Below, in pieces: positions 35,001 through 36,268 of a stretch of 64,000 nt of DNA. The notes below the pieces were generated by a model. That model was not told where the DNA came from, ran no database searches, and worked only from the letters and a program-made list of their open reading frames with translations. This stretch comes from Octopus vulgaris (taxonomy: Eukaryota). The stretch spans positions 992,001 to 1,056,000 of the forward strand of contig OX597834.1 in the NCBI GenBank assembly GCA_951406725.2, given 5' to 3'. The position numbers and the translations under genes are program-made. Position 1 is the first letter of the stretch. Every line of letters begins with the position of its first letter.

Positions 35001-35177
35001 TGTGGAGGTTAGTGTAGTGGCTGGTTTTGACTGTTGCAGGGGGCTTGGATTTTTTGTGTGTGTTAGTGGCAGCAATGTGGGGAATTGGTGCACTGGGGTA
35101 ATAGCATAGGATGGTGTTGAGTGATGGCTAGAATGTTTTTGTGTATCTCTTTTGCCATGTTCAACATGGCTAAAAAA
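32058..35177 (-). pseudogene. LINE-A ORF2 (AP endonuclease plus reverse transcriptase), two 1-nt indels
   Basis: [54 protein letters not shown]. Indels near 34545 and 33230. Confidence 0.88.
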
Positions 35178-36268
35178 GAATTTTCCTGCTTAGGGAGCAG
35201 TTTTTGGCTGGAGGTGTGGTTGCACTGTTGGATAGGGTTGTAGTTTCCACTTTTGTTGTTGTTGTTTTTGTGTCTTCCTGAAAAGACTGGACCAGCATTA
35301 CTGCAGCATGGTGTGTTTCTATTTTTATTGTTATTCAGGTTTGTGTGTTGGCTTGAGGCCCCGTTTCTGTTTGTGCGTCGGGTCCCTGGAAGATGAGTGA
35401 AGGGACAGTCACTCAGTAGACATGTTCTCTCACGTTGGGAATACCGGCAGATTTTGGGACTCCGAGTTGTGTGTGTTTTGAATTTCGATTTACTATTTGG
35501 TGGTGTTGATGTTATTGTGGGATTCGTGCTTTGGCCTTGGCCGGTAGTGCGTCTAGTGCCGGGTAGATGCGTGAAGATGCAGTCACTATTTGTGCAGAGT
35601 CTCTGGCGCAGTGAATAGCGGCATATTTGGGGATTTCTTGTTTGTGCCGTGGGGGGCGCATTCTGCTTCCTATGTTTCTTTAAGTTTTTGTTACTGCAGT
35701 AGTATTGAGGTGGTGATGTGGGGGAAGAGGGCAGTGGTTTCTTATTTGGTTTTCTGTTGGTATTTTTGGTGATTGAAGACGATGGTGGCAGCGGTGGTGA
35801 TGATGATGATGATAATTGTGGTGGTTGCTGTGAGAGCGGTGAAAAGATACTGGCATTTAGTGAATCATCTAGTAAGCTAGAGTTGAGGAGTGGCTGTTGT
35901 TGTTGTTGTTGTGCTTGACCGATGTTAGGGTCAGCCATTGTGCTGGGAACCAGGAGTGGCTCATTCTGTTGTTGTTGTTGTTGTGGCTGCTGATTTTCTA
36001 GCTGTTGTTGTTCTTGAACTGTGAAAATATGTAGAAGCTTTTCATAATGGCCTCTTATCAGTTTGAAAGATACTTCGATATGTTTCAGCTTGCTACGAAT
36101 CTGTTTGACGGATCGTGTGTTGACCACTTGTGATGTTTTTTCGGCAATCTCATTCAAACACAAGACATTTAGATTTTCTGTTTGGGAAAGAGAGAAACAT
36201 GTGTTTATTAAAACATCAATTTCGTTATCAGACCAATTTCGTCTGTTGCAGGCCTGCAAGTTAGTCAT
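35063..36268 (-). CDS. LINE-A ORF1: Myb/SANT-like N-terminus, poly-Q/P/S linker, two CCCH fingers
   Basis: Intact 401 aa; W S..E...L..RS.KQIRSKLK; two copies of IC-x7-C-x4-C-x3-HLPGTRRT. Confidence 0.75.
   Translation of the reverse strand: MTNLQACNRRNWSDNEIDVLINTCFSLSQTENLNVLCLNEIAEKTSQVVNTRSVKQIRSKLKHIEVSFKLIRGHYEKLLHIFTVQEQQQLENQQPQQQQQQNEPLLVPSTMADPNIGQAQQQQQQPLLNSSLLDDSLNASIFSPLSQQPPQLSSSSSPPLPPSSSITKNTNRKPNKKPLPSSPTSPPQYYCSNKNLKKHRKQNAPPTAQTRNPQICRYSLRQRLCTNSDCIFTHLPGTRRTTGQGQSTNPTITSTPPNSKSKFKTHTTRSPKICRYSQRERTCLLSDCPFTHLPGTRRTNRNGASSQHTNLNNNKNRNTPCCSNAGPVFSGRHKNNNNKSGNYNPIQQCNHTSSQKLLPKQENSFLAMLNMAKEIHKNILAITQHHPMLLPQCTNSPHCCH

Follow-up and report, generated by a model that had tools for sequence, protein, structure and literature searches.

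A probable programmed -1 frameshift at a U_UUU_UUA site joins ORF1 to ORF2 in a CR1-type LINE family of octopus

LINE-A is a retrotransposon copy on the minus strand of the window, the whole 64,000-nucleotide stretch of Octopus vulgaris DNA analysed here. The first ATG of its ORF2 lies inside the endonuclease domain, and the locus raises the question of how the enzymes encoded by ORF2 are translated. How LINEs synthesise ORF2p has long been an open question, and L1, SART1 and Zorro3, the cases tested, point to reinitiation. The initial annotation of this DNA proposed a ribosomal frameshift near the end of ORF1. The features concerned are the following.

31968..36591, minus strand: full-length LINE-A copy of the CR1 clade, between (TA)n, with a 3' tail of TATCAAAG repeats.
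35063..36268, minus strand: ORF1, 401 aa (ATG 36268, stop 35065-35063), with a Myb/SANT-like N-terminus, two CCCH-type fingers and a C-terminal helix.
35190..35192, minus strand: TAA closing the -1 (ORF2) frame upstream.
35180..35186, minus strand: G_GAA_AAU, a putative second and weaker site in the ORF1 phase, 9 nt ahead of the inner stem; present in LINE-A only, not conserved.
35171..35177, minus strand: slippery heptamer U_UUU_UUA in the ORF1 phase, Ser-Phe-Leu, where the ORF1 frame reads TCT TTT TTA.
35146..35179, minus strand: hairpin whose 5' arm holds the U-run; its inner stem of 7 bp (35170-35154) directly abuts the heptamer (0-nt spacing).
35063..35170, minus strand: dual-coded stretch, 35 ORF1 codons over the open -1 frame.
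32058..35189, minus strand: ORF2 frame, comprising a linker, the APE endonuclease (from 35000) and the RT; its first ATG is at 34577, and this copy has two frame breaks.

The window copy has a 5' start common to five other copies, and its 3' end is shared too. Pfam matches in the ORF2 frame were PF03372, PF14529 and PF00078 only, corresponding to an APE endonuclease followed by a reverse transcriptase (RT) with no RNase H; the solved-structure relative that ranked best for LINE-A was L1 ORF2p. In the parts shown in the supplements of PMC10294476, the RT of LINE-A matches O.sinensis_46/59/96_LINE letter for letter, and an RT stretch of a second family in the window, LINE-B, matches O.sinensis_135_LINE in the same way. 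These entries are classed there as Jockey/CR1, with CR1 placed by a tree, and the CR1 placement of LINE-A comes via identity to them (files 19 and 23), not from an RT tree of our own. Proto2 was considered as the clade of LINE-A and ruled out by RT motifs in the supplement alignment. The 601-nt junction was 100% identical in the best 40 of 889 candidate genome places, a ranking that favours identity, and the exact 28-nt LINE-A junction pattern occurred 207 times in the genome. Two frame breaks interrupt ORF2 of the window copy downstream (ORF pieces 34497-35189, 33161-34573 and 32058-33257); a single open ORF2 frame of 1041-1043 codons was found in four of the five other copies fetched whole (L061, L063, L064, L065). 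The first ORF2-frame ATG is that at 34577 (codon 205) in 29 of 30 fetched copies, the remaining one breaking earlier, and codon 205 is likewise the first ORF2 ATG in all five longer LINE-A copies. A database protein labelled Octopus vulgaris was encoded exactly in the source genome. Judged by the copy identity, the 207 exact junctions, the intact ORF2 copies and the RT matches, LINE-A is a young octopus CR1-clade family, and the ATG missing from the ORF2 start is a trait of the family.

LINE-A and LINE-B copies lie within (TA)n arrays, with short tandem tails at their ends. Three LINE-B copies or fragments are present (37640-41800, 45554-48096 and 49400-51869); in all three the ORF2 frame is interrupted at the same T-run, which lies at 39434-39440 in the first of them. 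A long inverted repeat between LINE-A and LINE-B (37095-37385; arms of about 100 nt, spacer of about 80 nt) looks MITE- or foldback-like by eye. Going by its motifs, the ORF at 19063-20448 (minus strand) may be a hAT-type transposase, and those at 2837-3463 and 10209-10922 (both plus strand) may be an IS1595/Merlin-type transposase and an RTE-type LINE fragment, respectively.

Reading of the minus strand confirmed that U_UUU_UUA stands in the ORF1 frame at 35171-35177, as the initial annotation had it. Its description of the -1 frame also held: the frame opens at the TAA just upstream, four codons before the first TTT, and continues into the endonuclease (Pfam PF03372) with no ATG on the way. 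ORF1 matched PF13837 (E 7e-4) and PF14608 (E 0.08), both below the Pfam cut-off; its C-terminal helix, amphipathic-looking by eye and not predicted, starts at the S-F-L of the shift site. TTTTTTA alone was close to chance in the 64-kb window (32 found against 23.4 expected; 4 of 100 shuffles reached 32), and the weight of the heptamer therefore rests on its phase, position and conservation. It is conserved across family copies, being carried by 207 of the 313 copies with exact flanks. A family consensus with an ORF2 ATG, or without the heptamer, would speak against a shift; most copies have the heptamer and lack an in-frame ATG upstream of the endonuclease.

A shift site in phase with ORF1 is found at the position of the LINE-A heptamer in six families of the source genome (A-F), of which C, D, E and F were found by genome searches with foreign proteins. 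The member of family B nearest to LINE-A in the window has the following site.

40858..40864, minus strand: LINE-B heptamer U_UUU_UUG (ORF1 41613-40702; -1 TGA 40876-40874; in-frame ATG 40750).

At the homologous position, ORF1 of LINE-B reads TCT TTT TTG, three codons after a -1 stop, and the LINE-B endonuclease (EN) is about 32-35% identical to that of LINE-A. U_UUU_UUG was present in all 27 readable loci of 30 in family B and in 25 of 30 in family E, while family C has U_UUU_UUA in 14 loci of 15 and U_UUU_UUG in one. Family D has U_UUU_UUA after AGT, not TCT, in 23 of 23 loci (AGT TTT TTA), followed by 74 open codons and no ATG. The residues of family F are R-N-F-V, and its codons give A_AAU_UUU in phase, with no ATG, in all five loci where the junction is preserved. 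ORF2 of families B, C and E could be started otherwise, as an in-frame ATG precedes the ORF1 stop by 15-21 codons; C has another ATG right after the U-run. With this exception, the downstream ORF lies in the -1 frame, is open from the site and has no earlier way in.

Relatives elsewhere carry the same arrangement. A metagenome scan gave 70 loci, and nearly the whole EN was matched in 13 of them (L191-L203), one of which is cut before the junction. All 12 remaining relatives, two of which share one junction, have an in-phase site at an x-F-L helix start; their EN is mostly 30-60% identical. The sites are U_UUU_UUA in six, G_UUU_UUA in two and G_GAU_UUU in four, and all 12 lack an ATG upstream of the EN motif. 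The G-led heptamers were accepted once they had been seen, the initial criterion having been a perfect XXX, and the background test given below controls for that. GUU and GGA are tolerated XXX forms (PMC3542737), and G_GAU_UUU is the PEMV shift site (PMC5009743). In an EN tree with a midpoint root and several unsettled deep forks, the three variant heptamers (G_UUU_UUA, G_GAU_UUU and A_AAU_UUU) fell in three separate subgroups; as far as sequence comparison can tell, the heptamer has changed three times yet stayed slippery. Among 26 database EN proteins with an N-extension of at least 40 residues, seven have FF and then R, S or I at 44-91 residues before EN, which is the -1 reading of T_TTT_TTA-[AG]; shuffles averaged 1.3 and never gave seven in 5000. 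One of the seven is labelled as a crab protein. The other 19 have no FF, and their called starts may fall after the site. The 57 more distant metagenome loci (L204-L260), many of them without an EN start match, showed no common pattern and were left out of the counts. An ORF1 word search found one relative, an ORF1 search of Atlas gave no usable match, and scans of viral contigs found no relative.

The N-terminal module of ORF1 varies within the clade: it is Myb/SANT-like in A, B and F, and a PHD-like Cys pattern was seen by eye in D (L176) and in most metagenome relatives (L194, L198, L200, L201). Shared within the clade are the CCCH fingers, the shift site and the helix that follows it. In a LINE outside the clade (L232:1308-1340), the ORF1 stop follows G_GAT_TTT_TTA by five codons, and ORF2, in the -1 frame, lacks an ATG upstream of EN; owing to its position and long branch, this LINE was left out of the counts.

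Across 12 lineages, the -1 frame is stop-free for 35-98 ORF1 codons after the site and has 2.7-11.4 stops per 100 codons upstream of it. The site follows the last -1 stop by 1-21 codons, and none of the 12 has an open +1 frame. X_XXY_YYZ occurs in the ORF1 phase in every lineage, four of them with G- or A-led variants. U-type in-phase sites number 7 in 3917 codons elsewhere in these ORF1s, yet one lies fewer than 22 codons from the last -1 stop in 12 of 12. The chance of an open -1 frame under synonymous shuffling was 0.03-0.69 per lineage and about 10^-12.4 jointly; given the amino acids, that of the slippery codons was 0.02-0.32 per lineage, jointly about 10^-15.4, and they were seen in 12 of 12 (L232 left out of both; 10^-12.8 and 10^-15.4 with it). 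Because the lineages share ancestry, these joint probabilities overstate independence and give the direction, not the true values. The nucleotides at the site appear to be under selection beyond the amino acids that they encode, in lineages that are not fully independent. Collectively, the conserved site, the three heptamer swaps and the long stop-free -1 overlap support the proposal of the initial annotation that ORF2 is made as a gag-pol-like ORF1-ORF2 fusion. We consider it probable that a programmed -1 frameshift at U_UUU_UUA makes this fusion in this CR1-type family. Ribosomes likely slip back one base, because ORF2 overlaps ORF1 at a conserved slippery site, mostly without a start codon before the enzymes.

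ORF2 could also be reached by AUG-independent termination-reinitiation as in human L1, through a near-cognate restart near the ORF1 stop or through the upstream ATG of B, C and E, and we regard this as unlikely. Translation of L1 ORF2 is independent of its AUG (PMC4091050, PMC1965478), and every ORF1 stop examined has near-cognate codons no more than 12 codons away; in LINE-A, TTG and CTG codons precede it by 2-3 codons. A restart at the stop would leave unexplained why the -1 frame is open over the preceding 35-98 codons, as well as the codon choice and the swaps of the heptamer. In six families (B, C, E, F, L201 and L202), ORF1 ends within the first EN motif, with no preceding ATG in F, L201 and L202, and the ATG of B, C and E is replaced by GTG in some B subfamilies and in F. 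A UAAUG-type stop-start was absent from the ORF2 frame, and no ATG lay within 12 codons of the stop in 19 junctions.

Internal non-AUG (IRES-like) initiation near the U-run, making ORF2 a separate protein with a long linker, would account for both the open -1 frame and the missing ATG. It has been proposed in general terms for non-LTR elements (PMC3894237), and a stable hairpin is found at the junction in A and B. We consider it very unlikely, since it predicts neither the phase of X_XXY_YYZ with ORF1 nor the swaps, and no structure is common to the relatives. The LINE-A hairpin (35179-35146) has a computed energy of -16.0 kcal/mol (z -4.7), which none of 200 shuffles equalled, and the stem that the initial annotation drew around the U-run (TCTTTT-tta-GCCATGT) does fold in LINE-A. 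It is not a general part of the signal, because it leaves no spacer and is absent from most relatives; at the junction it is strong only in A, and weaker in B and E.

The search for a stimulator of the proposed shift gave no shared element. The usual spacer is 5-9 nt (PMC5009743), and no 3' stimulatory structure was found after such a spacer across the relatives. When local folds were assessed against 60 shuffles, the mean z of 30-nt windows from -60 to +90 never fell below -0.9 in the 12 lineages, giving no shared local stimulator. BYDV-type pairing of the region after the site with the RNA 3' end was unremarkable in eight near-complete elements (ranks 23-136 of 164-214 windows). In LINE-A, the hairpin may act on G_GAA_AAU, 9 nt upstream of the inner stem. 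A 7-mer of the LINE-A 3' UTR (32000-32030) is identical to one in the 3' arm of the junction stem (35154-35170), and the UTR could therefore form 8+3 bp with the bases that directly follow the heptamer; this match to the 3' end is found in LINE-A only, LINE-B having a same-sense 7-mer that cannot pair so.

The heptamer might be a by-product of a conserved x-F-L helix start in ORF1p written in U-rich codons, with the open overlap incidental. F-L and the following helix pattern are indeed kept in nearly all families, and TTTTTTA is common in the AT-rich window. This is highly improbable: slippery codons were expected in 2-32% per lineage given the amino acids and seen in 12 of 12, family F altered the residues to R-N-F-V yet keeps an in-phase heptamer, and ORF2 would be left without a way in.

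The T-run of LINE-A (35172-35177) itself varies in length. Among the 313 copies with exact flanks, 207 have six Ts, 100 have five and six have seven. Five-T copies, which lack the heptamer, were found on all SNP backgrounds (L296-L307 and L261-L265 among the copies), so the loss of a T is recurrent and does not mark a subfamily. The T-run is one base short also in B, C and E; other runs in the fetched loci lost one base at 0-33%, and an A6 run 122 nt from the T-run was short in 5 of 354 copies. Five-T copies may reflect a context-dependent assembly error or slippage of RT or Pol II at the hairpin, neither being favoured. A five-T copy has UUU_UAG at the end of ORF1 and its ORF2 in the +1 frame, to which ATG 35298 also belongs.

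Such variation would also be expected if transcriptional slippage added a U, so that some RNAs encoded the fusion directly. RNAs that make ORF2p should be copied preferentially (cis preference), and seven-T copies, in which the frames are fused, would then be frequent; they are rare (6 of 313), which disfavours slippage as the route to ORF2p. The heptamers G_GAU_UUU and A_AAU_UUU, moreover, hold only four Us, and we give this explanation very little credence. A spliced RNA with UUUUUUAG as 3' acceptor, joining an upstream AUG to ORF2, has a negligible probability, since LINE-A, D and L201-L203 read TTTTTTAG but AG is absent in B, C, E, F and L191-L200, and contigs from four of four runs (RNA by guess; four studies) span the LINE-A junction without a joint or gap at the site. 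These contigs speak to presence only, being blind to level, strand and rare variants, and among the runs listed with the LINE-A junction none is recorded as RNA.

In the -1 frameshift that we favour, tRNA-Phe and tRNA-Leu would re-pair one base back at the heptamer. The product would be an ORF1-ORF2 fusion of about 1,410 residues, in minor amounts next to an ORF1 protein of 409 residues. The fusion would retain the Myb-like (or PHD) and CCCH domains of ORF1, lose the ORF1 C-terminal helix and tail, and pass via a low-complexity linker of 50-115 residues into the endonuclease and RT. The shift rate is the weakest part of this mechanism; it may be low, at a few percent, and depend mainly on the heptamer, because no shared RNA stimulator was found. 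U6A alone gives 4-6% -1 shifting in reticulocyte lysate (PMC3458567), of the same order as the ORF1p:ORF2p ratios of 6:1 to 47:1 in purified L1 particles (PMC4091050).

A joint reading of all these observations is speculative, and we hold it with considerable doubt. An invertebrate CR1 branch would make its RT as a gag-pol-like fusion at an internal, stimulator-free slippery site at the start of the ORF1 C-terminal helix, and the shift would replace an assembly module by the enzymes and leave the RNA-binding fingers in place. The U-run would also be a slip point when the element is copied, so that about one third of new LINE-A insertions would be five-T copies with ORF1 ending UUU_UAG and ORF2 reachable by a +1 shift.

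If the frameshift itself is true, a clade-wide -1 shift adds a retrovirus-like route to ORF2p in animals; the active enzyme bears ORF1 domains at its N-terminus, the annotated ORF2 starts of this clade are wrong, and the clade is a rare natural example of -1 shifting maintained with no RNA stimulator in common. The claim lends itself to direct testing, because the family is abundant and young and includes intact copies, and the four natural heptamers form an allelic series.

The main texts of PMC13343379, PMC4120745, PMC11203168, PMC10294476 and PMC3708506 do not contain the word 'frameshift', and outside subscription papers, Repbase reports and older CR1 papers we found no -1 frameshift described for CR1. 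An earlier suggestion is possible in those three sources or in the supplements of PMC10294476. Precedents in other LINEs exist. For Dictyostelium TRE5-A and TRE3-A, which like LINE-A are APE-type non-LTR elements and belong to another clade and kingdom, a -1 frameshift is stated to be needed for ORF2 (PMC5911963); the passages on them considered here give no heptamer, conservation analysis or assay. Frameshifting has also been reported for HeT-A (PMC5009743). TRE5-A and TRE3-A qualify the remark in the initial annotation that well-studied LINEs reinitiate, as a -1 shift in a LINE is not without precedent.

The heptamer classes found here, phased with the upstream ORF, are those of HIV-1 gag-pol, retroviruses, LTR retrotransposons and the umbravirus PEMV. 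As in retroviral tandem -1 signals, a startless RT-bearing ORF lies in the -1 frame and the upstream ORF runs past the site; many members have a -2 frame stop right behind it, as in HIV-1 (PMC3458567). Unlike HIV-1-type signals, the site described here belongs to a non-LTR element and has no conserved stem-loop or pseudoknot 5-9 nt downstream. Unlike retroviral gag-pol, the element encodes no protease, so the fusion would not be self-processed. ORF1 here combines a Myb-like or PHD module with CCCH fingers; the Jockey ORF1 survey PMC4120745 mentions neither 'Myb' nor 'CCCH'. Human L1 and silkworm SART1 share with this clade a bicistronic RNA and a need for little ORF2p, and how ORF2 is initiated is called an open question in PMC3894237. 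The L1 AUG is dispensable and the L1 ORFs do not overlap, and SART1 uses a UAAUG stop-start (PMC3894237); in the present clade, ORF1 and ORF2 overlap by 100-340 nt from the slippery site.
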